Below are positions 5,559-54,286 of a stretch of 64,000 nt of DNA, piece after piece. The first letter of the stretch is position 1. The number at the start of each line of letters is the position of its first letter. A model generated the notes under the pieces. That model was not told where the DNA came from, searched no databases, and saw only the letters and a program-made list of their open reading frames with translations. Source of the stretch: Vicinamibacterales bacterium (GTDB taxonomy: Bacteria > Acidobacteriota > Vicinamibacteria > Vicinamibacterales > UBA2999); NCBI GenBank assembly GCA_965249205.1, contig CBDFLL010000002.1:170810-234809 (forward strand). The letters run 5' to 3'. The translations under genes and the position numbers were made by a program.

Positions 5559-5571
5559 CTGCGAGCGTCTC

Positions 5572-7032: not shown

Positions 7033-7241
7033 ACTTGCTGACTCCTTGATCGGTCCTAGATTCTAGCCCCGCCAGTCACCAGACTGAGTGTCTCCAGGCG
7101 CATCGTGAGCCGTCCGGCGCGTCCAGTTGTGATGACGACCCCGCTATTCCGGTCGGGCAGAGGCGGGCGGTGGTAGAGATGCTGGGCGGGAGCTGCACAA
7201 TAAGTGCCAAGAAGAAGGATGTGGCACGCTGGCCGTATCGG

Positions 7242-8372
7242 CTACCCGAGGAGTTCGCTGTAGCACGCCTCGTACACAGGAACGACCCGATCGGCACAGA
7301 AATGTGTCCGCACCCGCTCGCAGGCGACCTTGGCGACACGCGCATGCAGGACTGGGTCGGTGAGCAGGCCGATGGCGCTCTCCGCCATGGGATCCAGTTG
7401 GTCCGGCGGATGCAGGAAGCCGGTGACCCCGTGCTCGATGACCTCGGGCAGCCCTCCGACCCGCGAAGCAACCACCGGCACCTCGCACGCCATGGCCTCC
7501 AACGCGGCCAGCCCGAAACTTTCCTGAGCGGAAGGGAGCAGAAAGAGGTCGCTCACCGAGAGCAACGGCACGATCTCTTCCTGCGCCCCCACGATGTCGA
7601 TCAGACCGGAGATGCCGAGTTCCCGAGCGACGCGATACGCCGTGCCCAACTCTGGTCCGTCCCCGACCAGCAGAAGCCTGGCGTGAACAGCCCGGCGAAT
7701 CCGGTCGAAAATCGCCAGCACCGCCTCGACGCGTTTCACCGGTCGAAAGTTGGATACGTGCGTGATGATTTTCACGTTGGGATCGTCGCCGCTGAAGCGC
7801 CGGCGAAGCTCCGGTGACACGTGCCGGCGATGCACGCTGCAATCCAGAAAGTTTGGAATCACGGCAATGTCACGCGTCACGCCAAGCTCCTCGCACGTGG
7901 CAGCCCGGAGACTCTCGGACACAGCGGTGACCCGGTCCGACTGTTCGATGGAGAACGCTACAATCTGGGAATATGAGGGGTCATTGCCGACCAGCGTGAT
8001 GTCGGTGCCGTGCAGCGTGGTGACGACGCGCGGTGCCGAGCCGCTCGACGCTAGCACCTGTCGCGACAGAAACGCGGCGGTCGCATGTGGCACCGCGTAG
8101 TGCGCGTGCACGACATCGAGACGGAACTCCCGCGACACCTCCACGATCTTGTTCGCGAGTGACAGGAGATACTGCGGCTCGCGAAACAGCGGATAGGTTG
8201 GGCTGAGCACCTGGTGAAACGCCAGGCCCGCCTGAAACTCTCCGAACCGGTACGGCATTTCGGTGCTGATGAAATGCACTTGATGTCCGCGGCGCGCCAA
8301 TGCCTTGCCCAGTTCAGTGGCGACGATGCCGCTGCCGCCAACCGACGCGTAACACACGAGACCGATATTCAT
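7242..8372 (-). CDS. bshA: N-acetyl-alpha-D-glucosaminyl L-malate synthase (GT4), bacillithiol biosynthesis
   Basis: [36 protein letters not shown] closely matches the BshA N-terminus. The ATG at 8372 overlaps the bshB1 stop (ATGA). Confidence 0.8.
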
Positions 8373-9151
8373 TGAGCGCCTTCGTTCGAGAGCAGACCGG
8401 GACGCTGACTCGTTGGCTGGCCGCAAGAATGGTCTGGCAGCAGGTGGGTGAGCACCACCGGGTCACGAACGACACACCCTTCGGCGAATGCAAAGCCAGC
8501 CTGCGCCCCGAATTGCGCATCGCGGCTCTCAATCAACTGCTGAAACCGCGAGCTCGTCGGTCGCGTCGCCACCGGGTCGGCGCCGGTGGGCCGGAACTGG
8601 CTGGCGTGGCACGCCAGCGCGCGCCGCTTCGTCTCGTAGTGGTCGCTCACATCGATCACAAAGGAGGGCGCCGCGGAATCGTTGATGAAGTAATAGCAGG
8701 TGACCTCCGGCTTCCACGCCGCGCCTTCAGCCGTGTAGCGCCGCAGGCCCGCGCTGAACACCGCTTCGGCGACCAGATGGCTGGCAGCGGCGTGATCCGG
8801 ATGCCGGTCGGACCAGTACGGCAGTGCCACGACACGGGGCCGCGCAAGCCGCACCAGTTCGGCAACCGTTCGAAGATGCAGAGGGTCACTGCCGATCGCG
8901 CGGTCAGGCAGCCGCAGGTTGGTCCGCCAGCGCGCGCCGAGTACCGCGCGGGCCGCCTCGGCCTCGGCCAGTCGCTCGTCGACAGTCCCGTTACTCCCCA
9001 TCTCGCCCGCGGTTAAATCGCACAGGCCGACGCTGTGTCCGAGCGCCGCATGCTTGGCGAGGATGCCGCCGCCGCCGATTTCTATGTCGTCGGGATGAGG
9101 ACCGAAGGCGAGCACATCGACGGCCTCCAGGGCCGGCGTCATCTGGTCCAA
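8369..9151 (-). CDS. bshB1: bacillithiol biosynthesis deacetylase (PIG-L/LmbE family)
   Basis: FGPHPDDIEIGGGG...GLCDLTAGEMGSNGTVDERLAEAEAA...NLRLPDRAI matches the BshB1/LmbE signature. Adjacent to and coupled with bshA. Confidence 0.8.
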   Translation of the reverse strand: MDQMTPALEAVDVLAFGPHPDDIEIGGGGILAKHAALGHSVGLCDLTAGEMGSNGTVDERLAEAEAARAVLGARWRTNLRLPDRAIGSDPLHLRTVAELVRLARPRVVALPYWSDRHPDHAAASHLVAEAVFSAGLRRYTAEGAAWKPEVTCYYFINDSAAPSFVIDVSDHYETKRRALACHASQFRPTGADPVATRPTSSRFQQLIESRDAQFGAQAGFAFAEGCVVRDPVVLTHLLPDHSCGQPTSQRPGLLSNEGAQ

Positions 9152-10350
9152 CCGAAGACACGATCCGCCTTGTCCGGGGCGCCGCGCAGCGCATCGAGCA
9201 GAATACGCGACGCCACGAAGGCGCCGGTCAGGCTGCCCGACCCGCCGAGTGCGAACAGGTGGTGCGGGTAGTTGCGATGCGCGCCGACATACATCAGGCC
9301 ATCGGACGACTCACCGTAGGTCGCGTCCCACCCGTACTCCGGCCGAAGGCCTGAAATCACCGGATAGGTCATGAGGAGCTGATACATCAGCTGCCCGGTA
9401 CGTTGTACAAGTACAGCGGGCTTGGCCCTGGCGCTCGTCTCGCGCTGGTCGGCGCCTCCGATGAGCAGTCGATCGCCGGCAACCCAGCGAATACGATGAG
9501 GCGGCGTCGCCCGATCGGCCAGAACCAGCTTCGGATCGACGAGCTGCTTTCGCACAACGGCGGAGACCGGCTCTGTCAGCACGCAGTAGGTTTCGTGCCG
9601 CGTGAAATGCCGCCGTAGCGGCTTGAATTCAGCCGTGGCGCTCCCGGTCGTGACAACCACAGTGCCGGCGCGGATTGTACCGCGCGCCGTGACGACGTCC
9701 GCCTCCTTGCGCGTGAAGCGGACCTTTGTCACCGGCGACTGCTCGAAATACGTCGCGCCCCGGCGAGCGCCGGCAGTCGCCAGGCCCAGGCAGGCGCGAT
9801 ACGGATCCACCGCGAAGCCACCCGACACTTTGATGCCTCCCGCGGCGCTCAGCTTCGTCTTCGTCAGAAGCTGCCTCGGCGTCTGCCACGCAAGCCCGAG
9901 CCCCGCAGCATGGCGCGCATCAAATTCCCGGCGAAGGTGACGCGCATCGTCATCGCGAGCAACGAGCACCGTGTCCCTCGGCGCCAACTGGCAGTAAACG
10001 CGTAGGCGACGCAACAACGCTGCCCCTTCGATCGCCCCGCGTCGCCAAGCCTGAAACACATAGCGTGCGTCGCGAAGGCCATGCGCGGCGACGATGTCTC
10101 GAAACGACGGCCCAGGATCCACGTCCAGCAACCCCGCACCTCGACCAGTGCTGCCCTGGCCGATCCGCGCCGCCTCGAGCACAACGGTGTCCAGACCTGC
10201 CTTGGCACAGGCGTAGGCAATAGCACAGCCGGTGATACCGGCGCCGACGACAACGACATCCGCAGTCCGGTCGCGACGAAACCGCGGAGAGACGGGGCGG
10301 GAGGACGCCAGCGCATGAATCCAAGGCGACGAACCGTAGCGTGTGCGCAT
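9139..10350 (-). CDS. FAD-dependent oxidoreductase (DAO family)
   Basis: Rossmann motif VVVVGAGITGCAIAYACAKAG. The start is taken at MRTRYGSSPW (10350); the track start at 10443 reads through an intergenic inverted repeat. Confidence 0.7.
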   Translation of the reverse strand: MRTRYGSSPWIHALASSRPVSPRFRRDRTADVVVVGAGITGCAIAYACAKAGLDTVVLEAARIGQGSTGRGAGLLDVDPGPSFRDIVAAHGLRDARYVFQAWRRGAIEGAALLRRLRVYCQLAPRDTVLVARDDDARHLRREFDARHAAGLGLAWQTPRQLLTKTKLSAAGGIKVSGGFAVDPYRACLGLATAGARRGATYFEQSPVTKVRFTRKEADVVTARGTIRAGTVVVTTGSATAEFKPLRRHFTRHETYCVLTEPVSAVVRKQLVDPKLVLADRATPPHRIRWVAGDRLLIGGADQRETSARAKPAVLVQRTGQLMYQLLMTYPVISGLRPEYGWDATYGESSDGLMYVGAHRNYPHHLFALGGSGSLTGAFVASRILLDALRGAPDKADRVFGWTR

Positions 10351-10411
10351 CAGCGAATTGTACCTTTGACGTTTGATCTTGCCTGAATCACCGACGATTC
10401 CTGGCCTAGGA

Positions 10412-10520
10412 CTAGTGGTCTGGTTGCGAATCAGCTTGTGCACCGAGGGCAGCGAGGCGCCAGGCGCGACGACGGGGCATGCCGGGCGACGCGCTAGCTG
10501 ATTCGCAACCAGACCACTAG
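10412..10520. repeat. 24-25 bp perfect inverted repeat with a ~60-nt spacer in a divergent intergenic region
   Basis: CTAGTGGTCTGGTTGCGAATCAGC (10412-10435) is the exact reverse complement of 10497-10520. One further flanking pair, T10436/A10496, extends the match. Confidence 0.9.
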
Positions 10521-10544
10521 GTTCCAGCTAAGATCTTCCTCACC

Positions 10545-13022
10545 ATGCGACGGCTGGTCCGGGTTGCGATTCTTGTGCTCGCCGCTCTGCTGCTGACGAC
10601 CGCAGTCGGCGCGGTGTGGTTGCGCGGGCAGGTGCGGGGCAGCCTTCCGCAACTCGAGGGCGAGCGACACATGCCGGGGCTCTCGGCAACCCTTGAGATC
10701 AGCCGGGACGAACTCGGCATCCCGACCGTGCGTGGCGTCACCCGCTTGGATGTGGCCCGGGCGACTGGGTTCCTGCACGCGCAGGACAGGTTCTTCCAGA
10801 TGGATCTCGCCAGGCGTCGCGCCGCCGGTGAGCTGGCCGCGCTCGTCGGCCCGCGCGCGGTGCCGCTCGACCGCGAGATTCGCATCCATCGATTTCGCGC
10901 CGAGGCGCACCGTGCGGTGTCACTGCTTGGCGCGCACGACCTGACACTGCTCGAGGCCTACACGCAAGGCGTGAATGCGGGACTTGAGGCACTCACCGCG
11001 CCGCCTTTCGAATACCTCCTCCTGCGGCAGGCGCCAGCGCCCTGGGCGCCGGAGGACAGCCTGCTCGTCGTCCTGTCGATGTTCGTGACGTTACAGGATT
11101 CTCGCGGCGAGTTTGAGGCGACGCTCGCGACCATGCGCGACGTCCTGCCGCCAGTGATGGTCGACTTCCTCAACCCCGAAGGCTCGGAATGGGACGCGCC
11201 GCTTCTGGGTGAACCGTTCGTGGCGGCCCCGATTCCGGAAGCAGATGTGTACGACCTTCGCGCGATGCGCGCCCGCAGACCCCGACGCACACCGCTCGGG
11301 CCGTCCGCGCTCCGCCGCGAACCGTCGGCAGCAAACGAGCCTCCCTGGGCCACCCGCCTTGATAGTCACGAAGGCGATAAGGTCGCCATCGGAAGCAATA
11401 ACTTTGCGGTGGCTGGTCACCTCACCGCCGATGGTGGCGCGCTGGTGGCCAACGACATGCACCTCAGCATTCGCGTGCCCAACACCTGGTACCGCGCGTC
11501 GCTCGAGTGGTCAGACTCGTCCAGTTCCGCCGGACCGGGGCAGATCACCGGCGTGACATTGCCAGGCGTGCCCGCGGTCGTCGTCGGTAGCAACACCTAC
11601 GTCGCGTGGGGATTCACCAATACCTACGCGGACTGGGGCGACATCGTCCTGCTCGACACGGACCCCGACCGGCCGGACAGCTATCTGACGCCCGACGGGT
11701 GGCGCGCTTTCGACGAGTACGACGAAGTGATCGACGTGGCCGGCGGGCCCGCCGAGCACCAGTCGGTGCGATGGACCATCTGGGGACCTGTGCTGGAACC
11801 AGATCACGTGGGGCGACCACGCGCCTACCGGTGGGTCGCGCATTCGGCTGAGCGGCTGGCCGCGTCGCTGACGCCGCTGGAATCCGCACGCACCATCGAC
11901 GCAGCCTTCGACGAGGCCAACGGCCTTGGTACGCCGGGGCAGAACCTCGTCGCGGCTGACCGAACGGGGCGCGTCGGATGGAGCGTGTACGGCGCGATAC
12001 CGCGGCGGCGTGGTTTCGACGGCCAGACCCCCACGTCGTGGTCAGATGGCTCGCGGGGCTGGGATGGCTGGCTGGACGACAGCGAGTACCCGCGCATCAT
12101 CGATCCGCCAGGCGGGCGCGTCTGGACGGCAAACGCGCGCGTCGCCGATGGCGAGATGCTGGCCAGGCTCGGGTACGGCAACTACGAGATCGGGTCGCGC
12201 GCACGGATCATTCGCGAGCGGTTGGCTGCCCGCGACCGCTTTTCCGCGCGCGATCTGCTCGACATCCAGCTGGACACAAGCGCGGCGTTTCTGGCGCGCT
12301 GGCGTGGGCTGCTTCTCGAGACGCTCACCGTGGACGTGGTCGGAGGAGAAGGCGAACGGGCCATGTTTCGGGACATCGTCGACGACGGCTGGTCCGGCAA
12401 GGCTGAGGCTGACTCCGCCGCGTACCGCCTGGTCCGCGAGTTCAGGAACGTCGTCTCCGAGCGGGTGATCGGGTTCGTACTCTCGGAGTGCTACGAAGCG
12501 GACCGGGCGTTCGACTACACGACGGTTCGGCGCCGAGACACACCGATCTGGATGCTGGTTACCGAGCAACCGCAGCATCTGCTCGACCCGCAGTACGCGG
12601 ACTGGAACGAGATGCTGCTCGATGCCGTCGACGCGACGATCGAGCGGGCGATGCGGGATCGCGACGGCAATCTCCGACCCGGTGATCTGCGCGACCGCGT
12701 CTGGTCCGAGTACAACGTGACCACGTACCAGCATCCGCTGTCGGGCGCCGTGCCGTTTCTCGACCGCTGGCTCGACATGCCGCGCGCAGCGCTCCCCGGC
12801 GACTTGTATTCGCCGCGCGTGCAGTCGGGGGCGCAGGGCGCGTCGGAACGCATGGTCGTCTCGCCGGGGCGTGAAGCCGACGGCATCATGCAGATGCCGA
12901 CCGGCCAGAGCGGGCATCCGCTCTCGCCGTTCTACGCCAACTCCCACGACGCCTGGCTGACGGGCGAACCGACGCCATTCTTGCCCGGGCCAACCGTGCA
13001 TACGCTGACGCTTACGCCCTGA
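10545..13022 (+). CDS. penicillin acylase family protein (Ntn hydrolase; possible AHL acylase)
   Basis: 825 aa. N-terminal TM/signal region, an internal SNNFAV nucleophile motif, and size and overall sequence typical of the peptidase S45 family. Confidence 0.8.
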   Translation: MRRLVRVAILVLAALLLTTAVGAVWLRGQVRGSLPQLEGERHMPGLSATLEISRDELGIPTVRGVTRLDVARATGFLHAQDRFFQMDLARRRAAGELAALVGPRAVPLDREIRIHRFRAEAHRAVSLLGAHDLTLLEAYTQGVNAGLEALTAPPFEYLLLRQAPAPWAPEDSLLVVLSMFVTLQDSRGEFEATLATMRDVLPPVMVDFLNPEGSEWDAPLLGEPFVAAPIPEADVYDLRAMRARRPRRTPLGPSALRREPSAANEPPWATRLDSHEGDKVAIGSNNFAVAGHLTADGGALVANDMHLSIRVPNTWYRASLEWSDSSSSAGPGQITGVTLPGVPAVVVGSNTYVAWGFTNTYADWGDIVLLDTDPDRPDSYLTPDGWRAFDEYDEVIDVAGGPAEHQSVRWTIWGPVLEPDHVGRPRAYRWVAHSAERLAASLTPLESARTIDAAFDEANGLGTPGQNLVAADRTGRVGWSVYGAIPRRRGFDGQTPTSWSDGSRGWDGWLDDSEYPRIIDPPGGRVWTANARVADGEMLARLGYGNYEIGSRARIIRERLAARDRFSARDLLDIQLDTSAAFLARWRGLLLETLTVDVVGGEGERAMFRDIVDDGWSGKAEADSAAYRLVREFRNVVSERVIGFVLSECYEADRAFDYTTVRRRDTPIWMLVTEQPQHLLDPQYADWNEMLLDAVDATIERAMRDRDGNLRPGDLRDRVWSEYNVTTYQHPLSGAVPFLDRWLDMPRAALPGDLYSPRVQSGAQGASERMVVSPGREADGIMQMPTGQSGHPLSPFYANSHDAWLTGEPTPFLPGPTVHTLTLTP

Positions 13023-17237: not shown

Positions 17238-20200
17238 CTACGCCTTAGGCCGCGGCCAATGGCGTGCCGCGGCTTCGGCGTCTTCCAGTTCTTCCTTGCG
17301 TCGCCAGTAGCCATGTTTCTTGATCAGCCGACGGGCTTCGGTCAGGTCATCGCGCGGACCGCGCGCGTGGCCGTTTGGATCTGCTGGACCGGCCACAGCA
17401 CTCAGATCGGTCGCCCACGGATACGGCGTGACGGCATGGAAGAGCCTCGCGCGGTAGAGATGGATGTCGGCGAGGAAGAGGGGCATGGGGCCGCGCTCGG
17501 CGATCTCCCAAGCCTCGTCCAGGTCATTCATCGTGCTCGCCTCACCCGCCACCGCCTGCGCCTCTTGGTTGAGAAGTCTCTGCCGTGTGGCTATCGCACA
17601 GGAGCACCAGGCGCGGGTGAAGAGGCCGCGGGGAAGCTCGTCGCTCTGTCCCGCGCGGCGGAGACCGTCCACGGCGGCGATAACCTCAGTCGCCGCGGAC
17701 GTGAGCCCAACTTGATCGTCCGCGGACTCGAGTATCAACCTGTAGAGCTTGGCGCGGCCCAGGGTCAGGTGGTCGAGAGCGATGCTGAGAAGCGCGTCGC
17801 TAGGAACTCGCCATTCGAACATCTTCGCACCGCGCGCGGCGACGGCGCGACAGGAGGCCACGCTCGTCGCCGCCGCCGACCGACTGTCAGCATCCGCCGC
17901 CTCTCGTCGGCTGCCCCCAAGCAGCATGTGCCACGCGCCACGCGCCGCCTCCATCAAGAGCAGCTCGCAATATCGGAAGCCCTGCACCGAATACAGCAAC
18001 GGGTATTGAGGCTGATTCTGGGCCTGCATTTTCTCGGCCTCGCGGAAGAGCGCTTCCGCCTCGGCCCGGCGGCCCGCATGGTGCAGGGCATCGGCATGGG
18101 TCGTGCGCTTGCCCATCCGCTGAAACGCATCGCCCGTGCGATCGGCGTAGGTAACGGACTGCTCGGCGTCCTCCACCGCCCCGGCCACGTCGCCCAGCGT
18201 CAGCTCCAGTTCGCTAAGGTTGCTGGCGCTGATGGCAGCGTTTGTCCAATCCTCCTGCTTGTCCATCAAGACAACCGTTGTCCGCATCGGTTCGACGGCC
18301 TCGGTTAACCGACCCAAGCCGCGCAGAAGCACGGCGGTTGTACCCAACAGGACCCCTTGGTCATTCTCTTTGAGTGAAGGCGAGACGCGGCTCCACGGGG
18401 TCTCGAAGAAGGAGGCGACGGCCCCAAGTTCGGAACCTAAGGCGCCGAGCTTCCTGGCGCTGTAGTAATTGTTCTGTTTGCGAATGCGTTCGAACCACAC
18501 CTTGTCATGCGCCTCCTGCTGCATCCCTGCTTGGCAGCCGTGGGCGACGGCCTGGTAGAGCGGTTGGAGGTCTTTGAGTGTGGGCTCGTCGCCTTCATTT
18601 GTGGTCGCGCAGAGGTGTTCGTAGAGCCGCCGGTGCGCGGCACGCCAGGCTTCGGGTTGCTCCTTCAGGACACGCCGGGCGAAGTATTCCCGAATGAGCG
18701 GATGCGAATCGAGCGCGACGAGGCTCTTGGCCGCATCACGGTTCACGGTGAGCAGCTTCGCCTCCTCGAGCCGGGTGAGCGCGATGTTCAACTGGCTTGG
18801 CGCAATCGACTTCTTTGCTACCGTGAAGAGCGCCTCGGTCAGACCTGGGATGACGGGGCCTGTCCACAGCGCCTCCAGGCAGTCGGCGGTGGCCGGGCGG
18901 TCGAACAGGCCGAGCAACCGCAGCAGAGCGACCGCGCGCCGGCCCTTCTGATTCTCTTCCCCGGTTTTCCCTCCGGTCTCGAGTGACTGCACATACGCAT
19001 CCATGACATGGAAGGCATGGCCGCCCTGCTCCTCCGCATCCGCCTCGTCGAGCTTCACGAGGTCGCGCCGACGAATGTCTCCGGCGTGGGCGTCGCGGAG
19101 GAACGTGCCGATCAGGTTGAGCGTCAGCGCGTGGCCCTTCACATCTGCGACGAGTGCCTCGAACTCCCTTTGACGCCCAACTACGCCGAGCGTCCTGAGT
19201 AGCGCCACGCCGGCTTCCGGCAACAACCGCAGGAGTACCTCCTCTGGCGCTGTCGTCTGCCAGTAGGCGCGCAAGTCCGGGATGGAATATCGCGTGGTGA
19301 CGACGCAGAGGCCGTTGCTGGTAGCGGCCAGCCCTTTGAGCACAGCGGCAAGGCCCTGGTCCTTCAGTTCGCCCGGCGTGGGAGAGGTGGGCGCGTATTG
19401 CAGCGGCTCCAGGCCATCCAAGATGAGCAGTGCCCGCCGTTCGCCGGCGAGCTGGGCGAGCCGCCGGCCCTTGTCGAACGCGCCAGCGCTACCCTCCGCC
19501 ATCTCCGCGTCGCCGAAGAACGTGAGCGCCTTGAGAAACAGGTCGGACGACACCGCCATCTGCTCCCGCGTGCCCTGGCTGTAGAAGGACCACGCAAACA
19601 CCGCATCGCACCCCGGCCAGTCCTGATGCGCCAGCTCCGCCGCCCACTTCGCCACGAGCGACGTTTTTCCCTCGCCCCCGAGTGCGACGAAGGTGAGAAT
19701 GTGCGGTCGCTTCGTCTCGCCGCGCACCGCCTTGTCCCAGGCGTTGGCAAGGAGCTTGGTCTCGGTCTCGCGACCGATAAGTTCCGATGGTGCGTATTTG
19801 ATGATGCGTAAGATATCGACCTTCGCCGTCTGAGTGGCGGATGTTTCGCCGAAGGTAAGCGCGGTCCCTTTTCGACGATGTCTGGGCTTGAGCGCGCCGA
19901 CCGGAAGCGGCTCCACACCTGCCCGCTCCAGCAACAAATCGTAAAGGCGCTGGTAGTTACTCTCAGAGGTCAGGGAGTAGTGGCTGACCGAACGCATCGG
20001 CTCTGGGATCCAATCCTCAGTGGCGGCAGACAAGAACACCGGCACAAACTTCAGCGTATTACTGCGACTGCCGTAGATTTCTTGGGTGATGAGGGCACCC
20101 TCCCAATCGACGCCCTTGCCCTTACCGAGTTTTTCATGCCCGCGGAATCGGCGGTAGTAGGTTTCGGTGCAGACGACAAGAACGGAGCCCGCGGCATCGA

Positions 20201-20369
20201 GTTGATCGAGCATCCAGCGCGGCCAGCCCTGCTGGGGTGCGCCGTTCACGTACTGGTCAAGGAGAGTCTCGATGCCGTCCTGGCGCAGCCGTTCGGAGAG
20301 CGCAAGCACTTGTTTACTATGCTCGACGGAATCGTGGCTGTAGCTGATGAAGACCGTGTTCTGTTTCAT
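17238..20369 (-). CDS. SEFIR/TIR - NB-ARC (STAND ATPase) - TPR protein, NLR-like
   Basis: 1043 aa. N-terminus: TVFISYSHDS...VLVVCTETYY...KFVPVFL. NB-ARC motifs in order: Walker A GGEGKTS (231-237), Walker B LLILDGLE (314-321), TTR (358-360) and GHALTL (412-417). The C-terminal ~500 aa are helical repeats. Confidence 0.8.
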   Translation of the reverse strand: MKQNTVFISYSHDSVEHSKQVLALSERLRQDGIETLLDQYVNGAPQQGWPRWMLDQLDAAGSVLVVCTETYYRRFRGHEKLGKGKGVDWEGALITQEIYGSRSNTLKFVPVFLSAATEDWIPEPMRSVSHYSLTSESNYQRLYDLLLERAGVEPLPVGALKPRHRRKGTALTFGETSATQTAKVDILRIIKYAPSELIGRETETKLLANAWDKAVRGETKRPHILTFVALGGEGKTSLVAKWAAELAHQDWPGCDAVFAWSFYSQGTREQMAVSSDLFLKALTFFGDAEMAEGSAGAFDKGRRLAQLAGERRALLILDGLEPLQYAPTSPTPGELKDQGLAAVLKGLAATSNGLCVVTTRYSIPDLRAYWQTTAPEEVLLRLLPEAGVALLRTLGVVGRQREFEALVADVKGHALTLNLIGTFLRDAHAGDIRRRDLVKLDEADAEEQGGHAFHVMDAYVQSLETGGKTGEENQKGRRAVALLRLLGLFDRPATADCLEALWTGPVIPGLTEALFTVAKKSIAPSQLNIALTRLEEAKLLTVNRDAAKSLVALDSHPLIREYFARRVLKEQPEAWRAAHRRLYEHLCATTNEGDEPTLKDLQPLYQAVAHGCQAGMQQEAHDKVWFERIRKQNNYYSARKLGALGSELGAVASFFETPWSRVSPSLKENDQGVLLGTTAVLLRGLGRLTEAVEPMRTTVVLMDKQEDWTNAAISASNLSELELTLGDVAGAVEDAEQSVTYADRTGDAFQRMGKRTTHADALHHAGRRAEAEALFREAEKMQAQNQPQYPLLYSVQGFRYCELLLMEAARGAWHMLLGGSRREAADADSRSAAATSVASCRAVAARGAKMFEWRVPSDALLSIALDHLTLGRAKLYRLILESADDQVGLTSAATEVIAAVDGLRRAGQSDELPRGLFTRAWCSCAIATRQRLLNQEAQAVAGEASTMNDLDEAWEIAERGPMPLFLADIHLYRARLFHAVTPYPWATDLSAVAGPADPNGHARGPRDDLTEARRLIKKHGYWRRKEELEDAEAAARHWPRPKA

Positions 20370-41466: not shown

Positions 41467-42510
41467 CGTGCTTATCCGGTTGTTTCAGCAAGCCACCACC
41501 GGTAGTGTATCGGCGTGGCGCGCCCGTCGTTTCCGAAGAATCTCCGGGAGTTTCAGCGGCAATTTGCGACCGCCGAGGCCTGTCAGGACTACTTGGCGGC
41601 GTGCCGCTGGCCGGACGGCTTTGTGTGTCCCCGGTGCCGGCACGCGCGCGGCTATCGCCTGACCACACACCGGCGCTGGCAATGTGCGGCGTGCCGGTAT
41701 CAGGTGTCGCTGACCGCCGGGACGATTCTCCACAACACGAAGTCGCCGCTCCTGGTGTGGTTCTGGGCGGCCTATTTGACGGTTACCGACAAGCGGGGCC
41801 TCTCGGCGCTCCTGCTGCAGCGGCAGTTGGGCCTGCGGCGGTACGAAACGGCGTGGCTGCTGTTGCACAAGCTGCGGCGCGCGATGGTGAACGCGGGGCG
41901 GGAGCCCTTGTACGGCGACGTGGAGATCGATGACACCTGGGTGGGCGCGCCCCAGGCCGGCCTGCGCGGCAGTCGCCAACTCAAGGGGCGGAAAGCCGCG
42001 CTGGTGCTGGTGGCGGTGGAACGACGCGGGGATCGGTCGGGTCGGGTCCGCATGTCCGTGATCCCGAACTTCAAACAATCGACGATGCTCGCGTTCGTCA
42101 CTCACCACATTGCGCCGGGGGCGACGGTCTACACCGACGGGCTGAAAAGTTTCGATGGGCTCCAGGCCGCTGACGTGAGACACGTCGCCCGCCCGCAACC
42201 GATCCGGAGCGCCCTGCACAGGGGGGTGCCCTCCGTCGTGCCTTTGGCCGACCGCGTCATCGGCAATTGCCAACAGTGGTTGATTGGCACGCACCACGGC
42301 GTCAGCAAGGCGCAACTACAGGTCTACCTCGATGAGTTCGTGTTTCGGCACAATCGGCGGCGGCACCCGATGGCCGCCTTTCAGACCCTGCTGGGCCTGG
42401 GGACCGGACGGACGCCCACGCCCGCCCGACGGATTCGCGGCGTGCAGGACGTGCGCCCCCCAGGCTGATCGCAAGATATAGGGGTTAGCTGAAACAACCG
42501 GATAAGCACG
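41467..42510 (+). mobile_element. IS1595-family insertion sequence, copy 2 (1044 bp)
   Basis: Same ends as copy 1. I found only 2 substitutions against copy 1: A13634/T41743 and C14334/T42443. The flanking 8-mers match only 6/8 (AGGCGACC left, AGGCGAGG right). Confidence 0.9.
41515..42468 (+). CDS. IS1595-family transposase
   Basis: 317 aa, differing from copy 1 at 2 residues (T->S, A->V). Confidence 0.85.
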   Translation: MARPSFPKNLREFQRQFATAEACQDYLAACRWPDGFVCPRCRHARGYRLTTHRRWQCAACRYQVSLTAGTILHNTKSPLLVWFWAAYLTVTDKRGLSALLLQRQLGLRRYETAWLLLHKLRRAMVNAGREPLYGDVEIDDTWVGAPQAGLRGSRQLKGRKAALVLVAVERRGDRSGRVRMSVIPNFKQSTMLAFVTHHIAPGATVYTDGLKSFDGLQAADVRHVARPQPIRSALHRGVPSVVPLADRVIGNCQQWLIGTHHGVSKAQLQVYLDEFVFRHNRRRHPMAAFQTLLGLGTGRTPTPARRIRGVQDVRPPG

Positions 42511-48175: not shown

Positions 48176-48457
48176 ATGGTTCGAGCTACATTCTCGCTGG
48201 ACGAAGCCACCATAGCCGAGATCAAGCGCACGGCTGCGCGGCTACGCAAGCCCCAGAGCCATGTGGTGCGCGACGCAGTGGTTGACTATGCGGCCCGCAC
48301 CGACCGCCTGAGCGAGCGGGAGCGGTTGCATTTGATGGGGGTGCTCGAAGGGCTGCGCCACAAGAGACCGACGCGCCAGGCAACGGCCGTGGATGCCGAA
48401 CTGAGGTCCTTGCGCTCCGCAAGGCGTGATGGGGGGCGCCGGCACAAGTCAGCATGA
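48176..48457 (+). CDS. vapB: type II antitoxin, ribbon-helix-helix (VapB/CopG-like)
   Basis: 93 aa with an RHH-like N-terminus (ATFSLDEATIAEIKRTAARL). Overlaps the PIN gene by 4 nt. Confidence 0.75.
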   Translation: MVRATFSLDEATIAEIKRTAARLRKPQSHVVRDAVVDYAARTDRLSERERLHLMGVLEGLRHKRPTRQATAVDAELRSLRSARRDGGRRHKSA

Positions 48458-48828
48458 TTGTTCACATTGATACCAGTGCACTGGTCGACGCCCTGACCGG
48501 CCCTCGCCGATCTCTCGAGACACTGATCAGCCTGACTGACCAGGGCCATCGCCTGGCGCTCTCGACAATCGTCCTCTACGAATGGCTGCGGGGGCCGCGG
48601 ACCAGGGCCGATCTGTCGGCGCAGGAGGCCCTGCTCCCCTCCGAGCACGCGATTGGTTTCGGACCAGCCGAAGCCGCCCTCGCGGCCCGCCTGTACAAGC
48701 AGGTGGCGCGCCCCCGCGGGCGCGAAGTTCATCTGGCCGTGGCCGCGGCCGCAATCGAGCATGGTGCCGCCATCTGGACGCTCGACTCGGGCGACTTTCG
48801 CGACATCCCCGAGTTGCGTCTGGTGTGA
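48454..48828 (+). CDS. vapC: type II toxin, PIN domain ribonuclease (VapC)
   Basis: 124 aa, with MIVHIDTSAL (D6), E43 and TLDSGDF. Confidence 0.8.
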   Translation: MIVHIDTSALVDALTGPRRSLETLISLTDQGHRLALSTIVLYEWLRGPRTRADLSAQEALLPSEHAIGFGPAEAALAARLYKQVARPRGREVHLAVAAAAIEHGAAIWTLDSGDFRDIPELRLV

Positions 48829-48918: not shown

Positions 48919-49011
48919 TGGCGGTGAGGCAGGGATTCGAACCCTGGGTAGGGGTTTAAGCCCTACAACGGTTTAGCAAACCGCCGCCTTCAGCCTCTCG
49001 GCCACCTCACC
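48919..49011 (-). tRNA. tRNA-Ser (anticodon GCU)
   Basis: Hand-folded 93 nt. Acceptor GGTGAGG/CCTCACC, anticodon loop TTGCTAA, long variable arm GTAGGG/CCCTAC, T-arm CAGGG-TTCGAAT-CCCTG, encoded CCA. Confidence 0.9.
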
Positions 49012-49134
49012 GTATAGGGGTTGCCGTCTGTGGACGCTCGCAAACGGCCTCGCTCCCAACATTATAGCGATCGTCGGCGCGCGCCGTTTCAGGACGGTGC
49101 ATCGCCACCGGGCCTCGGGGATAATGCGTGCGAC

Positions 49135-50181
49135 ATGCCCGCACCCGAGCCGTACATGACGATTCGGGCCGTTCGGCCGCTCGCGTCGGGCCTGCAGGCG
49201 CTGGGCCACGATCCCGCCCCCTTTCTGGCCGCCGAAGGGATCGACGCAGCGATGCTCGGGGACCCGGATGCCCGTGTGCCGTGGGGCTCGGTCCTGTCGC
49301 TGATCGCACGTGCGATCGACGTCACGGGCGATTCCAACCTCGGGCTTCACATCGCCGAACACGCCGAACCGGGATCGCTCGACGTGCACTTCTATGCGCT
49401 GCTCTCAAGCCAGACGCTCGGCGACGGCTACCAGTGCCTCTGCCGCTACCAGCGCCTCGTCCATGAGACGACGCGCATCGAGCTCACCGTAGATGGCGAG
49501 CACGCGACGTTGCGCCATGTCATGCCTGGCGGCGTCGCGGCGCCGCGACACAGCGCTGAGTTTCTGCTGGCGATCTGGGTGCGCGGCGGTCGAATGGCCA
49601 CCGGCACCGACTGGGCACCGACCGAAGTCCGGTTCGCGCATCCGCAGCCGCAGGATTCGAGCGACCATCGTCGATTCTTCGCGGCCCCGGTGCGGTTCTC
49701 CACGGCAGAGAACGCCCTCGTCCTGCCGGCGGCGCTGCTCGAAACGCCCTGCCAACGCGCAGACGCGGCACTCCTGGCTGTGCTGGACAGGTATGCGGCG
49801 GATCGGCTCCAGCGGACTCCTGAGACCACCGGCTTCGCCGACCGCGCACGCGCCGCGCTGCTGGAAGAGCTGCGAGCGGGCGAGCCGAGCGCGGCACGAC
49901 TCGCGACGCGGCTCAAGACCAGCGTGCGAACGCTGAACCGCACGCTCGCCAGCGAGAATCTCTCCTACCGACAGCTGCTCGACCACCTCCGCCATGAGCA
50001 AGCCTGCCGACAGCTTGCCGACGGGCGCGTCGCGATCGCCGAGATCGCCTTCCTCCTCGGATTCTCGGAGTTGAGCGCGTTCTATCGGGCGTTCAAGCGG
50101 TGGACCGGACAGACACCGGCTGAGTTCCGCGGCGACCGCACAGCGCTCCACGCAACGAGCAAACGAGATGCACTCGGGTAA
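49135..50181 (+). CDS. AraC family transcriptional regulator
   Basis: The C-terminal HTH_18 region (VAIAEIAFLLGFSELSAFYRAFKRWTGQTPAEFR) is typical. The start is moved to 49135 to clear the tRNA. Confidence 0.85.
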   Translation: MPAPEPYMTIRAVRPLASGLQALGHDPAPFLAAEGIDAAMLGDPDARVPWGSVLSLIARAIDVTGDSNLGLHIAEHAEPGSLDVHFYALLSSQTLGDGYQCLCRYQRLVHETTRIELTVDGEHATLRHVMPGGVAAPRHSAEFLLAIWVRGGRMATGTDWAPTEVRFAHPQPQDSSDHRRFFAAPVRFSTAENALVLPAALLETPCQRADAALLAVLDRYAADRLQRTPETTGFADRARAALLEELRAGEPSAARLATRLKTSVRTLNRTLASENLSYRQLLDHLRHEQACRQLADGRVAIAEIAFLLGFSELSAFYRAFKRWTGQTPAEFRGDRTALHATSKRDALG

Positions 50182-50220: not shown

Positions 50221-51267
50221 GTGACTCAACAGCGGCGTTGGCGCTCGTTGTTGCCACTGAAACCGCCACGGAGCACGGTGCTCAAGGAAGCTGGCTATCA
50301 GCCCGCGTCAGACCGGGAGCCGTGGGACCTCTGGCTGTGGCAGAGCCGATCCGCCGACATGCGATCTCGCACGCAGGCACTGATGAGTGGCGGCGGCCTG
50401 GAACGTCGGCTGGCAACGCTCCAACCGCCAGATCCTCTCGCTGTGGTCGGGGCGATCCCGGGCGGGTTGGCGCTGTCCAACAAGCGCAGCCTCTGGATTC
50501 GACTGGTGAAAGCCTATGGGCGCGCACGGGCAGAGACGATCGCCCCGGCAACCTGGCTACCAGATTTCCCCGCTGACCGCCGTCTCCTTGAGGCGCGTCG
50601 AGGCTCGGATGCCCTGTATCTGTTGAAGGACTCGTCCAAGAACCGCCGCAAGGGGCTGACGGTCACCAGGGATCCTCTGATCGGCGGCAGTTCCCGGCAC
50701 GTCGTGCAGGCCATGGTGCCGGATCAGCTATTGATCTCAGGGCATCGATGCAGCCTCAGATGCTGGGTTGTGCTGGTGCGGCACCAAGGAGTCCTCAGTG
50801 CCCATCTGTATCGCGAGGGCATCGTCATGTACGTCCCGGGCGGCTCGGCCGTCGAAGACCAGTGGATTACCCGACAGCAGAAGCACATCGGGCCGGCTGG
50901 CGCCCCGCAGCGACTGTCTACTTTGTGTTCAACGCTCGCGGTCGAGCGCGCGGACCCCGGCACCTTGCACGCCGGTATCGTCCGGGCCGTACGAGGCGCC
51001 GTCAACGCCTCCCTGGGCGATCTGAGAGGAAGCGTGCTCAGCAGTCACCGCTGCTTTGAGCTGCTGGGCGCGGACTTCGTCGTCGACCGGCATCTGAAGC
51101 CGTGGCTGCTGGAACTGAACCGGATGCCGAGCCTCGAGTCCAGGCAGGAATCGGAGCGTCCGCTCCGGTCAGCGATGCTGAGGTCAGCCTTCGCTTGTGG
51201 AGGTGTAGCTGGGTTCAGCCCGGACGATGAGTGCCCGGAAGTGGGGCGCTGGGCCATCCAGCTATAG
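50221..51267 (+). CDS. tubulin-tyrosine ligase (TTL/TTLL)-like ATP-grasp protein
   Basis: HVVQAMVPDQLLISGHRCSLRCWVVLV...HLYREGIV and CFELLGADFVVDRHLKPWLLELNRMPSLE parallel the TTL blocks YVAQKYI.NPLLI.G.KFDLRIYVLVT..LYKEG and CFEILGFDILLD..LKPWLLEVN.SPS. Confidence 0.8.
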   Translation: MTQQRRWRSLLPLKPPRSTVLKEAGYQPASDREPWDLWLWQSRSADMRSRTQALMSGGGLERRLATLQPPDPLAVVGAIPGGLALSNKRSLWIRLVKAYGRARAETIAPATWLPDFPADRRLLEARRGSDALYLLKDSSKNRRKGLTVTRDPLIGGSSRHVVQAMVPDQLLISGHRCSLRCWVVLVRHQGVLSAHLYREGIVMYVPGGSAVEDQWITRQQKHIGPAGAPQRLSTLCSTLAVERADPGTLHAGIVRAVRGAVNASLGDLRGSVLSSHRCFELLGADFVVDRHLKPWLLELNRMPSLESRQESERPLRSAMLRSAFACGGVAGFSPDDECPEVGRWAIQL

Positions 51268-51487
51268 GTACGGTGTGCACAACGTTCCTCAGCGGGCCCG
51301 GCAGGTCGACGGACCCGCAAGTTTCATCTACCGCGGCGGATCAGAACTAAGGGGTATAGTTGGCAGCATCGGTCACCCCCCCTTGGGCTTCGCAGATTTC
51401 GCGTTCAGGTTGTCGGCACGTAAACACGGATACGTCTTTCAGAGCACTCGCGCGAGGGTGGTGTGATTCGACGGGAATGAGGCATCA

Positions 51488-52420
51488 ATGAAACATGTTA
51501 TTGCGGTGGTCCTGGTGACCGCGCTCTGCGCGGCCGTTTGGGTTGCACCGGCATACGCGCGGCAAAACGGCAAGAAGAACACGAACGCGCCGGACAATGG
51601 CCCCAACAACCAGAATTGGAACACGGTCGTGACCGGCGCGACGACCGACGCATCGCAAACAACGCTCTTCCTCGTCGGGGACGACTTCTCGCCGGATGCG
51701 GCCGTCTACATCGCCGGTTTCCAGTTGGGTAATGTCATGGTCGATGCGTCGAGGACGTCGCTGACGGCGATGATGCCAGCAGGCGGGTTCGTCCCAGGCA
51801 GCTACCTGGTTCGCGTGGTGGCCGGCACCTCTGAGCAGAAGAACGTCAGCTTCGAGATGACCATCGGAGCTGCTGGTCCAACAGGTGCCGCCGGAACCGA
51901 CGGCGTTGACGGTCTCAATGGCATCAACGGTATCAACGGCACCAATGGTACCAACGGCGTTGATGGCACCAATGGTATTGATGGGGTCGTTATTGGCCAC
52001 TACCGGACGTTGGGCGACGACGCGAACAACTACACGGTGATCCCCAACAATTCGTCGGGAGTGAGGATCACGAATTGCGATCCGGGAGATGTCGCTGTGG
52101 GCGGTGGGCACCTCATTGACGGCATCGGATCTTTGTCGGCGCCGGCAATCCTCGCCAGTGTTCCCTGGCAGAGTGCGGAATCGTGGCTGGTCCAGGCGGT
52201 GGGGACCGGTAGCTACGGGAATTTCACGCTCTACACCGTCGTTCGGTGTGCTGATTACGCTCTGATTCACGTGGGTGGCATGGACGAGATGGAGTTCACC
52301 GAAGCCGAGTCCAACCTAAACGACCTGGTCTCTGAATATCAGCAATACGAGGACGCGACTGCAGAAGACGAGGAGTTTGAGGACGAGGAAGAAGACGGGG
52401 AAGACGAAGAAGAACTCTGA
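51488..52420 (+). CDS. secreted IPT/TIG-like + collagen-triplet-repeat protein with a polyacidic C-terminal tail
   Basis: Signal peptide [24 protein letters not shown]. 13 G-X-Y triplets (aa 127-166). Final 23 aa: [23 protein letters not shown] (17/23 acidic). Confidence 0.75.
51866..51985 (+). repeat. collagen-like G-X-Y coding repeat (13 triplets, 9-bp periodicity)
   Basis: [40 protein letters not shown]. The DNA shows the ggNatcaac / ggNaccaaY periodicity. Confidence 0.85.
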
Positions 52421-52490: not shown

Positions 52491-53666
52491 TCAGAACGAG
52501 CCCTCCAGAGACGATTCTTGGCCAGCCGCCCCCGGATCGCGGGTCGTATGCGCCAGCGCTGCCTCGATCTCCTCAAGGACCCAGGCGTCTGACTCGCGCT
52601 GGTGGCGCGCCTGTAGCGCCGCACGCGCCCCGGCATCGTCGAAGCGTCCCAGTGCCCAGGCGCAGTGGCCGCGGACCAACGCAGACTCGTGCTGCAGTCT
52701 CGATGTCAGCGCCGACACCGCACGCGGATGATCGCTATTGCCCAGCGCCACGGCGACGTTCCGCAGGAAGCCCTGATATTTGGCGCGCCTCACCGGGCTC
52801 CCGCGGAACAGCGTCTTGAATCCCTCCTCGTCCAGCGCGAGGAGGTCCACGAGATCAGGCGCCCGGAGCTCCTCGCGAGCCGCGAAGGCCGACGCCGCTG
52901 CCCCGACCTGGGCGAAGCGGTTCCACGGACAGACGTCCTGGCACTCATCACAGCCAAAGATGCGATTGCCTACGCCCGCCCGTAGTTCGCGCGGGATCGG
53001 GCCACGGTTCTCGATCGTCAGATAGGAGATGCAACGCCTCGCGTCAACAACGTAGGGAGCGACAATCGCCTGCGTCGGGCACACGTCGATACATGCCGTG
53101 CAGCTTCCGCACTGGTCGGCAACCGGCTCTCCGTACGCAAGCTCGCAATCGAGTACGATGGCGCCGAGGAAGAACCACGAGCCCACCCCGGCGGTGATGA
53201 GGTTCGAGTGTTTACCGATCCAGCCCAGGCCGGCAAGTTCCGCCCAGGCCTTCTCCAGCACGGGGCCGGTGTCGATGTAGTAGCGCCCCACGACGCCGGG
53301 CGCGATCTCCTGTATGCGCTGATACAGGTCGCCAAGCGCGCTGCCGAGCACGTCGTGGTATTCGCCCCCCCACGCGTAGCGGGAAATCCGGGCGCGGGAC
53401 GCATCGGTGCTCGCTTCCTCGCCGGTCCAGTAACTTCGCGTGACGATCAGGACCGACCGCGCCGCCGGCACCACGAGCCCCGGATCGGCGCGCCTGCCGG
53501 CGCTGCGCTCCATCCACTGCATGCTCCCGTGCATGCCGAGCGCGAGCCACTCGCGAAGACGCGGGGCCGCATCCAACGCGCCCACAGGCGCAGCCTCGCA
53601 GCGATCGAACCCCAGGCCGGTCGCCGCCGATTGGATGGCACGCGTCCGCTCATGGAGGGGGCTCAT
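52491..53666 (-). CDS. queG: tRNA epoxyqueuosine(34) reductase
   Basis: 4Fe-4S motifs CGSCTACIDVCP and CDECQDVCPWN are present, with a HEAT-like C-terminus. The start is MSPLHERTRAI (53666); the track ORF has a 267-nt Arg-rich extension. Confidence 0.85.
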   Translation of the reverse strand: MSPLHERTRAIQSAATGLGFDRCEAAPVGALDAAPRLREWLALGMHGSMQWMERSAGRRADPGLVVPAARSVLIVTRSYWTGEEASTDASRARISRYAWGGEYHDVLGSALGDLYQRIQEIAPGVVGRYYIDTGPVLEKAWAELAGLGWIGKHSNLITAGVGSWFFLGAIVLDCELAYGEPVADQCGSCTACIDVCPTQAIVAPYVVDARRCISYLTIENRGPIPRELRAGVGNRIFGCDECQDVCPWNRFAQVGAAASAFAAREELRAPDLVDLLALDEEGFKTLFRGSPVRRAKYQGFLRNVAVALGNSDHPRAVSALTSRLQHESALVRGHCAWALGRFDDAGARAALQARHQRESDAWVLEEIEAALAHTTRDPGAAGQESSLEGSF

Positions 53667-53761
53667 GGCGCGCAGTCTAGCAGCCCGTGGTGCCGTGAAC
53701 CGACTTGCCACTCTTTGAAGGTGCCGCGGCGCACGCCGATCGCAGCCGGGGCTTCGCCGCC

Positions 53762-54286
53762 CTAACGAAAAATCGTGGCGCCGGCCATGGTGTTGGGAAT
53801 GACGGCCCCGGTCGCGAGCTGGTAGAGCGTGCCGCTCCCGTTGGTAGCGAAGGACCGCTGCCCAGTGCTGCCAATCGAGGACGGCTCGGTGTGCGCGTGG
53901 AAGCTCGCGACCGTATCGGCCCCGCCGTTGCACGTCGCGGCGCTGAGAGTCATGACGGTTGGATCAGTGCCCGCCGCCACCGCCACACCGTAGCCGCTCT
54001 TGACCACGCCTGTCGTGGAGAGGTCGGAGGTGATGAACGCCGAGCCACCGCCCACCGGGGCCAACGCAAGATCCTCCAGCGAGGGCGCGTATCCACCGCC
54101 GCATGTCGACGCGTAGCTGGCCTCCGCGCTGCTGATGATGCGAAGTGAACCGACGGCCGAGGCCTCGTTGCCCGACTGGCGTGCGCGCAGCAGGCCGGGG
54201 ATAGCGACGGCAGAGACGATGCCGATGAGCGCCACGCTAATCAACAGCTCGATCAGCGTAAATCCCCTGGCGTCCTCCGTCGTCAT
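53762..54286 (-). CDS. prepilin-type N-terminal cleavage/methylation domain protein (type IV pilin-like)
   Basis: The GFTLIELLISVALIGIVSAVAIPGLL class III signal follows a short leader (MTTEDAR). Confidence 0.8.
   Translation of the reverse strand: MTTEDARGFTLIELLISVALIGIVSAVAIPGLLRARQSGNEASAVGSLRIISSAEASYASTCGGGYAPSLEDLALAPVGGGSAFITSDLSTTGVVKSGYGVAVAAGTDPTVMTLSAATCNGGADTVASFHAHTEPSSIGSTGQRSFATNGSGTLYQLATGAVIPNTMAGATIFR

Follow-up and report, generated by a model that had tools for sequence, protein, structure and literature searches.

In silico analysis of a 64,000-nucleotide stretch of a Vicinamibacterales genome (contig CBDFLL010000002.1, positions 170,810 to 234,809 of the forward strand; hereafter the window, meaning this stretch at its full length) points to a small three-gene island reaching from a tRNA-Ser gene to queG, which comprises an AraC-family regulator, a tubulin tyrosine ligase (TTL)-type or TTL-like (TTLL)-type ligase that we call open reading frame (ORF) A, and a fibre-like protein predicted to be exported, ORF B (Table 1). 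Eukaryotic TTL and TTLL enzymes add tyrosine, polyglutamate or polyglycine to the C-terminal tails of tubulins. An earlier note on the same DNA had recognized the 348-residue TTL-family protein, the gene for an acidic-tailed protein 220 nt downstream on the same strand, the AraC regulator directly upstream, also on that strand, and a signal peptide on the acidic protein, and had speculated that ligase and acidic protein constitute an enzyme-substrate pair. The gene assignments are borne out by our analysis, as is, in the form of a prediction, the signal peptide. As for the tail of ORF B, alignment indicates that it is a copied eukaryotic beta-tubulin sequence and not merely an acidic one.

A ligase gene beside a tubulin-type tail

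Residues 263-310 of ORF B align to residues 401-445 of beta-tubulin, i.e. helix H12 followed by the C-terminal tail (E 7.8e-14 vs. the PDB), and match hundreds of eukaryotic beta-tubulins with ~93% identity. The earlier note had described this end as polyacidic, which was right with regard to acidity (17 of the last 23 residues) but under-read the sequence as a grafted H12 and tail. The likeness to tubulin is limited to these residues, and ORF B matched neither of the Pfam tubulin families (GTPase domain, PF00091; C-terminal domain, PF03953), its only Pfam match being a marginal one to Collagen (28.1 bits vs. a cutoff of 27.2); as judged by sequence, ORF B is neither a tubulin nor BtubA/B-like. 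In its variable part, ending in ...EEL, the tail agrees with a specific group of beta-tubulins from environmental eukaryotes (e.g. P0016, P0013, P0018 and L097). Fungi of the Mortierellomycota had been suggested as tail donor by the 90% cluster of P0018, which holds their beta-tubulins, but their tails differ and the suggestion was withdrawn. The G+C content at third codon positions (GC3) is 0.65 in the tail module vs. 0.73 in the rest of ORF B.

The carrier portion of ORF B starts with a signal-peptide-like N-terminus and continues through an N-terminal domain, a collagen-like stretch and a beta-rich middle region (Table 1). ORF B has 27% identity to P0058 over 86% coverage, and its residues 51-116 weakly match the NCBIfam 'choice-of-anchor Z' repeat (E 2e-4). 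A low-confidence AF2 model built without an alignment (pLDDT 35) places helices at residues 2-27 and 267-292. All proteins in which we found such tails have a hydrophobic N-terminus (hydropathy 2.0-3.4) together with an AXA-like or lipobox site, features lacking in the enzymes, as scored by a heuristic and not a dedicated predictor; ORF B and the other tail proteins are predicted on this basis to be Sec-exported or surface-type proteins.

Table 1. Positions in the window of the island genes, their borders and the parts of ORF B.
Feature	Position	Strand	Basis or remark
tRNA-Ser (GCT)	48919..49011	-	ARAGORN; left edge of the three-gene insert
AraC-family transcriptional regulator	49021..50181	+	Pfam Arabinose_bd E 2.8e-50, HTH_18 E 1.7e-20
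ORF A, TTL/TTLL-family ATP-grasp amino-acid ligase, 348 aa	50221..51267	+	Pfam TTL
Spacer between ORF A and ORF B, 220 nt	51268..51487	+	Intergenic
ORF B, 310 aa	51488..52420	+	Next same-strand ORF after the ligase
ORF B predicted signal peptide, aa 1-24, AYA|R	51488..51559	+	h-region hydropathy 3.18; heuristic
ORF B N-terminal domain, aa 25-126	51560..51865	+	Common to P0058, P0130, P0138, P0150
ORF B collagen-like Gly-X-Y, aa 127-168	51866..51991	+	14 uninterrupted triplets
ORF B middle region, aa 169-262, beta-rich	51992..52273	+	No Pfam match; strands in low-confidence AF2 model
ORF B tubulin C-terminus module, aa 263-310, with stop codon	52274..52420	+	Beta-tubulin alignment
queG	52491-53933		Other flank of the cassette

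ORF A matched the Pfam TTL family (PF03133) with 76.7 bits vs. a cutoff of 20.1 (E 2.4e-21). When set against RimK-type models, only TTL scored above cutoff in Pfam, ATPgrasp_YheCD and ATPgrasp_ST giving weak, sub-cutoff matches over a 30-residue stretch, and no NCBIfam model matched. A profile of eight family members retrieved TTLL6 from the PDB over the entire catalytic core (chain residues 24-345, E 3.6e-22), with weaker matches to TTLL7 (4.6e-17) and TTL proper (~1e-11). The AF2 model of ORF A on the family alignment (pLDDT 80.3, pTM 0.83) predicts the three-domain TTL-type ATP-grasp fold; in Foldseek the best match of this model was TTLL6 (TM 0.69-0.73, identity ~19%), and the top 50 were exclusively TTLL6, TTLL7, TTLL11 or TTL (TM 0.62-0.73). 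Across the family (5-8 members aligned), no variation occurs at K136, R142/143, G145, Q163, R180, D285, E298 or N300; the catalytic ones, predicted ATP/Mg2+ residues (the lysine in the central domain, the aspartate, glutamate and asparagine in the C-domain), line up with GFDILLD...LLEVN of TTLL6 and, going by offset, with D318/E331/N333 of TTL (E298 being the counterpart of E331). The earlier note had singled out the ATP-grasp catalytic residues for an alignment check, in which K136, D285, E298 and N300 proved conserved, and ORF A is predicted to have the full TTL core with an intact active site. The protein is basic (isoelectric point 10.3), has no signal peptide (maximum 10-residue hydropathy -0.26), would be 329 residues long from an alternative gene-caller start (P0001) and ends ~25 residues past the last core motif; the TTLL6 alignment likewise goes no further than the core. 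The conserved arginine of the family (R142/R143) occupies the position equivalent to Q180 of TTLL6, a position that separates initiases from elongases and carries arginine in initiases (10.1101/2020.06.07.139295), which we take as a weak hint of initiase-type chemistry for ORF A.

The tail module has the marks of a resident bacterial sequence. All bacterial copies share an essentially invariant H12 peptide of 25 residues, and GC3 of the H12 block tracks the G+C content of the host, from 0.36 (hosts of 0.36-0.37) to 0.56 (0.44-0.52), 0.76-0.80 (window lineage) and 0.96-1.00 (0.68-0.77), with pairwise nucleotide identity between blocks as low as 0.67. Between the tails of the window and of its close relative L082, 12 synonymous and 5 non-synonymous codon differences were counted among 47 codons. 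Since the peptide remains invariant while GC3 follows the host, and since the window/L082 changes are mostly synonymous, we conclude that the module is a resident one, that its codon usage has ameliorated toward that of the host, and that purifying selection keeping it identical to eukaryotic tubulin is very strong. Behind their predicted signal peptides the fusions continue in frame and stop where tubulin naturally stops, and several independent samples yielded the same genes.

Contaminating fragments of eukaryotic tubulin are common in bacterial assemblies (L083, L087, L090, L101, L116, L118), some of them intron-split on large contigs, and genome matches were set aside as contamination or mis-binning where the contig was tiny or the tubulin gene intron-split. 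In three species-representative metagenome-assembled genomes (MAGs), labelled Nitrospiraceae, delta proteobacterium and unclassified bacterium, intron-split and near-canonical eukaryotic beta-tubulins lie on 'bacterial' contigs of 0.4-1.6 Mb (L101, 7622-10114; L116, 8129-9398; L118, 5400-10054), which suggests that these contigs are mis-binned or chimeric in the reference collection.

Tail modules and ligases in other genomes

Tail carriers were sought by an exhaustive P0058 search and by a tail-alignment scan of species-representative genomes. The beta-type H12 and tail block was found on unrelated carriers, predicted to be exported, in MAGs that carry the labels Fibrobacteres, Bacteroidota, Bacteriovoracaceae, Deltaproteobacteria and others. 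Carriers with the ORF B-type N-terminal domain and a Cys-rich region are P0058, encoded on a 575-kb bacterial contig found in three samples, and P0130. A small ICHxxGNG...AHxAHGD domain, which has no Pfam family and is also the carrier of the alpha-tail proteins, bears the block in P0267, P0193, P0151 (from the Bacteriovoracaceae MAG L086), the Prolixibacteraceae locus L085, the high-GC proteobacterial MAGs L088 and L093, and a Fibrobacteres lipoprotein with a long coiled-coil spacer (L084). P0192 is a PKD-domain carrier, and in the Cyclobacteriaceae MAG L100 the module (~9980-10140) is internal, not C-terminal, in a repeat-rich, adhesin-like protein of >2262 residues (ORF 5633-12418). Among the beta-type tails, several have -EEY, -EQY or -EVY as their last residues, and some copies retain extra tubulin residues upstream (RKAFLHWYTGE in L093, NWYTGE in L088 and L082). 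The neighbourhoods of the tail loci are unrelated to one another. Taken together, these alignments indicate that the tail is a portable module present in several bacterial phyla.

The TTL-like relatives of ORF A appear from their sequences to fall into two bacterial clades, whose flanks were examined up to 10 kb per locus. Clade I, with at least 40% identity to the window enzyme, comprises the window, L005, P0003/L001-L004, L006 and P0004, and clade II, with 30-36% identity, comprises L008, L076, L079 and L080. In L005 (87% identity), the beginning of an ORF B homologue is seen downstream of the TTL gene. In L001-L004 (P0003, 51% identity), a 144-residue protein with a predicted signal peptide is encoded between a pair of TTL-family genes, which in L001 are two different paralogues; the L001 protein ends in residues 410-452 of alpha-tubulin, including the terminal EEY (...GEEY, E 5e-10). 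A homologous small protein, ending ...DYEEVGAESADVEGEEDVEEY, is encoded directly upstream of the TTL gene of L006 (40% identity) on the same strand, its tail being of the alpha type with VEEY at the end, and a 122-residue gene product is encoded immediately upstream of the TTL gene of P0004 (48% identity). Approached from the tail side, the small carrier with beta tail P0267 was found 71 bp from a gene fragment matching Pfam TTL, and P0193, also with a beta tail, shares an NCBI assembly with a clade II TTL gene. The clade I enzyme thus recurrently adjoins proteins with alpha- or beta-tubulin tails, with TTL adjacency in at least four diverged loci.

Clade II has a conserved neighbourhood of its own, made up of a ~120-residue lipoprotein upstream, a membrane/TPR-like protein of 152-167 residues, a family-less protein of 392-422 residues and a secreted protein of ~150-174 residues (L076, 5635-10383; L079, 2451-6947; L080, 270-5227; and L008).

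The syntenic close relative L082 (84-86% nucleotide identity), which has the same tRNA and queG flanks as the window, carries two deletions, one removing the body of the AraC gene (window 49189-50098) and the other 1.7 kb with most of the ligase and ORF B (window 50525-52227). What remains (L082, 2108-2798) includes a 55-residue ORF that still encodes the tubulin module, NWYTGE residues lost from the window copy among them. As the deletions cover AraC, ligase and ORF B, the three genes seem to have decayed as a unit. Genes for a Fibrinogen_C-domain protein, a patatin-like protein and an M36 fungalysin-like peptidase are found near the TTL and tail genes of L001 (2793-5669, 10850-11872 and 11882-13933), a 2056-residue ankyrin-repeat protein adjoins P0267, and a Methyltransf_16 lysine methyltransferase adjoins P0193 (L120, 1570-2229).

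Several more distant TTL-like loci from the metagenome scan were rejected as non-bacterial. L016 and L052-54 are high-GC eukaryotes, with a Sec23-like gene and a 989-residue TTLL. L044, a contig of eukaryotic origin used as a control, encodes a genuine, divergent tubulin of 424 residues, with a gene of the TTL family ~2 kb from it (4487-5761, 7075-8543) on DNA with CA-microsatellites and a G+C content of 0.54. L007-L042 are giant-virus-like contigs, gene-dense and of 0.15-0.35 G+C, on which the TTL-family proteins (e.g. L015, 9758-10900; L029, 9752-10840; Pfam E 1e-23 to 1e-26) have an N-terminal transmembrane-like segment and the neighbouring genes look giant-viral as well (SNF2 helicase, ERCC4, RNase H with a Cauli_VI domain, RING finger, GT29). 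Within 6 kb of these metagenome loci no acidic-tail ORF was found. Being eukaryotic or giant-virus-like and without a tail partner, they are uninformative on the bacterial system. A search of viral contigs turned up no tail module and no bacterial-type TTL.

What the ligase and the tail protein may do

The reading that we favor, and to which we give about an even chance, is that the ligase modifies the grafted tail of its neighbour prior to export and that the exported protein serves as a tubulin-tail decoy toward eukaryotes. A 14-residue alpha-tubulin tail (the 'Tub-tag') grafted on the C-terminus of any protein suffices for TTL (PMC5418632), and because TTL modifies any protein with such a bare tail at its end, the grafted bacterial tail may likewise be a sufficient recognition element for a cytoplasmic ATP-dependent ligase. 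The enzyme would add one or more amino acids to the tail, most likely glutamate on a side chain, given that it is nearer to TTLL6/7 than to TTL and has an arginine at the initiase-type position. This step would take place before the C-terminus, which is translocated last, exits through Sec. The collagen-like stalk would then display the (modified) tubulin tail outside the cell, where it could act as a mimic or decoy for readers and editors of tubulin tails (motors, CAP-Gly proteins, severing enzymes, TTLLs and carboxypeptidases) during contact with fungi or protists. With the putative substrate being a tubulin H12 and tail, the likely biology shifts to eukaryotic-tubulin mimicry, away from a purely bacterial system of the RimK/S6 type. 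More tentatively still, we postulate that several phyla display a near-perfect alpha- or beta-tubulin C-terminus on exported or surface proteins, thereby imitating microtubule surfaces for the motors, CAP-Gly proteins, severing enzymes or tail editors of eukaryotes, and that one lineage has added a TTLL-type 'writer' to give the decoy a chosen tubulin-code mark.

A number of observations weigh against the proposal that the ligase modifies its neighbour's tail to make a decoy: 1) none of the four clade II loci has a tubulin-like or acidic tail within 3-6 kb; 2) the tail genes L073, L084, L085, L086, L088, L093, L100 and L120 are without a TTL-like gene in a flank of 5-10 kb, so that the tubulin-tail mimic clearly works without an adjacent ligase; 3) a scan of the species-representative genomes with the TTL-like alignment found no clade-type TTL, and the clade appears to be rare and absent from that collection; 4) the alpha-type tails already encode a terminal -EEY, which would make tyrosination unnecessary for them; 5) readers of tubulin tails are cytosolic, whereas ORF B is predicted to be exported; 6) enzyme and substrate are predicted to be in different compartments, and modification ahead of export is assumed; 7) the autonomous TTLL glutamylases are defined by a cationic microtubule-binding domain that follows the core on its C-terminal side, as in the TTLL7 and TTLL6 structures, and ORF A has no such domain of the TTLL4/5/6/7/11/13 type; 8) the 64-kb window contains no secretion system and gives no obvious sign of a host-associated lifestyle. 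The conserved linkage that the earlier note had suggested looking for is borne out but not universal, being found in the window, L001 (51%), L006 (40%) and P0267 and missing, over the flanks covered, in clade II and for at least eight tail genes. As for its proposed enzyme-substrate pair, recurrent linkage and conserved catalytic residues strengthen the idea, but the addition of amino acids to the tail is what we infer throughout.

Some of these same observations would fit two separate anti-eukaryote tools, in which the ligase enters a eukaryotic cell and rewrites the tubulin tails of the host with the ATP available there, and the tail protein is an independent decoy, the genes being neighbours through a common interaction or regulation. 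The mimic is mostly encoded without a nearby ligase, pointing to a function independent of it; enzyme and tail protein have opposite predicted topologies; in its variable tail the mimic follows one particular eukaryotic lineage, as would suit mimicry directed at a host; eukaryote-type domains of other kinds occur near related loci; and the two TTL paralogues of L001 are what one would expect of a tubulin-writer toolkit. We nevertheless hold this scenario to be less likely than the favored one, as the enzyme has no recognizable secretion signal, the window offers no secretion system to carry it, and it lacks the microtubule-binding domain with which TTLL glutamylases act on polymerized tubulin; furthermore, close adjacency is seen repeatedly, with various carriers and with either type of tail, for which direct interaction is the simplest explanation.

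Less probable again is a purely bacterial form of tagging, with the tubulin-derived tail as a handle for the ligase and a poly-amino-acid extension (e.g. polyglutamate) on surface proteins serving cation or mineral binding, adhesion or matrix, with no eukaryotic partner. An enzyme encoded beside its substrate is the usual bacterial layout for peptide modification by ATP-grasp enzymes, the carriers resemble surface fibres or adhesins, and RimK, a bacterial ATP-grasp ligase that adds glutamate to the C-terminus of ribosomal protein S6, offers a precedent. A mere handle, however, needs neither a 25/25 identity to eukaryotic H12 across phyla at saturated synonymous sites nor a lineage-specific variable tail nor an -EEY end, and most tail carriers have no ligase nearby. 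Given that many bacterial records contain contaminating eukaryotic tubulin, even as intron-split genes on large contigs, we also considered that the tubulin-like ends are assembly chimeras or recent non-functional transfers and that TTL adjacency is coincidental. That explanation is effectively refuted, with next to no probability left to it, by the invariant peptide in blocks whose GC3 matches each host (0.36 to 1.00), the in-frame fusions behind predicted signal peptides with a natural tubulin stop, the recurrence of the genes in independent samples, the preponderance of synonymous changes between the window and L082, and TTL adjacency at diverged loci.

In comparison with known systems, the eukaryotic enzymes (TTL, TTLL6, TTLL7 and TTLL11) are of the same Pfam family as ORF A, with the same three-domain ATP-grasp fold and catalytic K/D/E/N residues, and ORF B carries the very sequence on which they act, a tubulin tail preceded by H12. 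Unlike them, ORF A is a minimal core of ~330-350 residues in a bacterium, and its putative substrate is no tubulin but a chimera predicted to be Sec-exported, with no microtubule present. The bacterial loci resemble a natural version of the Tub-tag, the L001 tail resembling VDSVEGEGEEEGEE(Y), whereas the Tub-tag is engineered and paired with vertebrate TTL, and the bacterial modules also keep H12 and include beta-type tails. With RimK/S6, the system would share a ligase extending the acidic C-terminus of a specific protein, an action that is predicted for ORF A; in contrast, RimK belongs to a different ATP-grasp family, S6 is a cytoplasmic housekeeping protein without eukaryotic mimicry, and rimK and rpsF do not form a mobile cassette. 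Listeria ActA and the Legionella effectors are comparable as bacterial copies of a eukaryotic interaction surface, export being predicted for the tail proteins described here, and ankyrin, fibrinogen-like and lysine methyltransferase genes lie near loci related to ours, but the proposed tubulin mimic has a putative cognate 'writer' of eukaryotic type and its hosts are environmental and apparently free-living. Legionella SidJ, a calmodulin-activated bacterial protein glutamylase with a kinase fold (10.1101/2021.04.13.439722), is likewise a glutamylase in a eukaryotic-host context, but it is unrelated to TTL in sequence and fold and has no tubulin-tail partner.

Eukaryotic-type tubulin sequence resident in a bacterial genome has its parallel in Prosthecobacter BtubA/BtubB (with Bklc), which are eukaryote-type tubulin genes, apparently horizontally transferred (PMC5372463). 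Those proteins are full-length, polymerizing and intracellular, whereas the ORF B type consists of the last ~45 residues on carriers predicted to be exported, without the GTPase domain. Resembling BtubA/BtubB operons outside Prosthecobacter, tandem pairs of divergent full-length tubulins (48-51% and 30-36% identity to beta-tubulin) were seen on the MAG contigs L114 (2424-5065), L115 (8777-11527) and L119 (8795-11426), labelled Myxococcales, Gammaproteobacteria (1.2-Mb scaffold) and Nannocystaceae; the first L115 copy has an acidic end (...EEEEEEDY).

Tubulin tails and their decoration by TTL/TTLL enzymes (the 'tubulin code') are seen as an innovation of eukaryotes, and a literature search, outside of which most subscription journals fell, came upon no account of bacterial proteins with tubulin-tail modules, of a linkage between such modules and TTL genes or of tubulin-tail mimicry. 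If our reading is correct, this would be a bacterial system of tubulin-code mimicry without described precedent, providing a small, soluble and genetically tractable pair for studying tail recognition and choice of chemistry in the TTL family, as well as a natural Tub-tag-like system that may serve protein labelling. An invariant H12 and tail on predicted secreted proteins of several phyla points to an unrecognized mimicry of fungal, protist or animal microtubule machinery. A bacterial origin has been proposed for TTL-type ATP-grasp domains (PMC3495828), and the present loci bear on whether TTL is bacterial or was taken back from eukaryotes together with its substrate. For curation, a tubulin-like match need not be contamination when it turns up in a bacterial genome.

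Setting of the island in the window

The true start of the AraC regulator is probably slightly downstream of 49021, and the protein matched QhpR/GliR-like NCBIfam models below their cutoffs. A scan of the spacer between ORF A and ORF B for promoters and terminators found no terminator-like or sigma-70-like site; a GAGG is positioned ~8 nt upstream of the ORF B ATG. The PADLOC models of anti-phage defence systems gave no match for the ligase, ORF B, the AraC regulator, the L001 TTL paralogue or the L001 tail protein. The remaining window is ordinary bacterial chromosome, harboring PurK, GltX, M61 peptidases and an RND-type pump region along with a VapBC-like pair and an IS1595 transposase. Its phosphofructokinase falls, at 90% or more, into one cluster with a protein assigned to an Acidobacteria MAG, which agrees with a probable Acidobacteriota chromosome. 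The VapBC-like pair, consisting of a ribbon-helix-helix (CopG-like) and a PIN-domain gene with the stop/start overlap typical of VapBC (48176-48828), lies just upstream of the tRNA-Ser bordering the cassette, and the IS1595-family transposase (DDE_Tnp_IS1595 with a zinc ribbon; 41515-42468, + strand) is ~7 kb from the cassette. Elsewhere in the window, a 1043-residue protein (17238-20369, - strand) has an N-terminal SEFIR/TIR domain followed by a long uncharacterized remainder.

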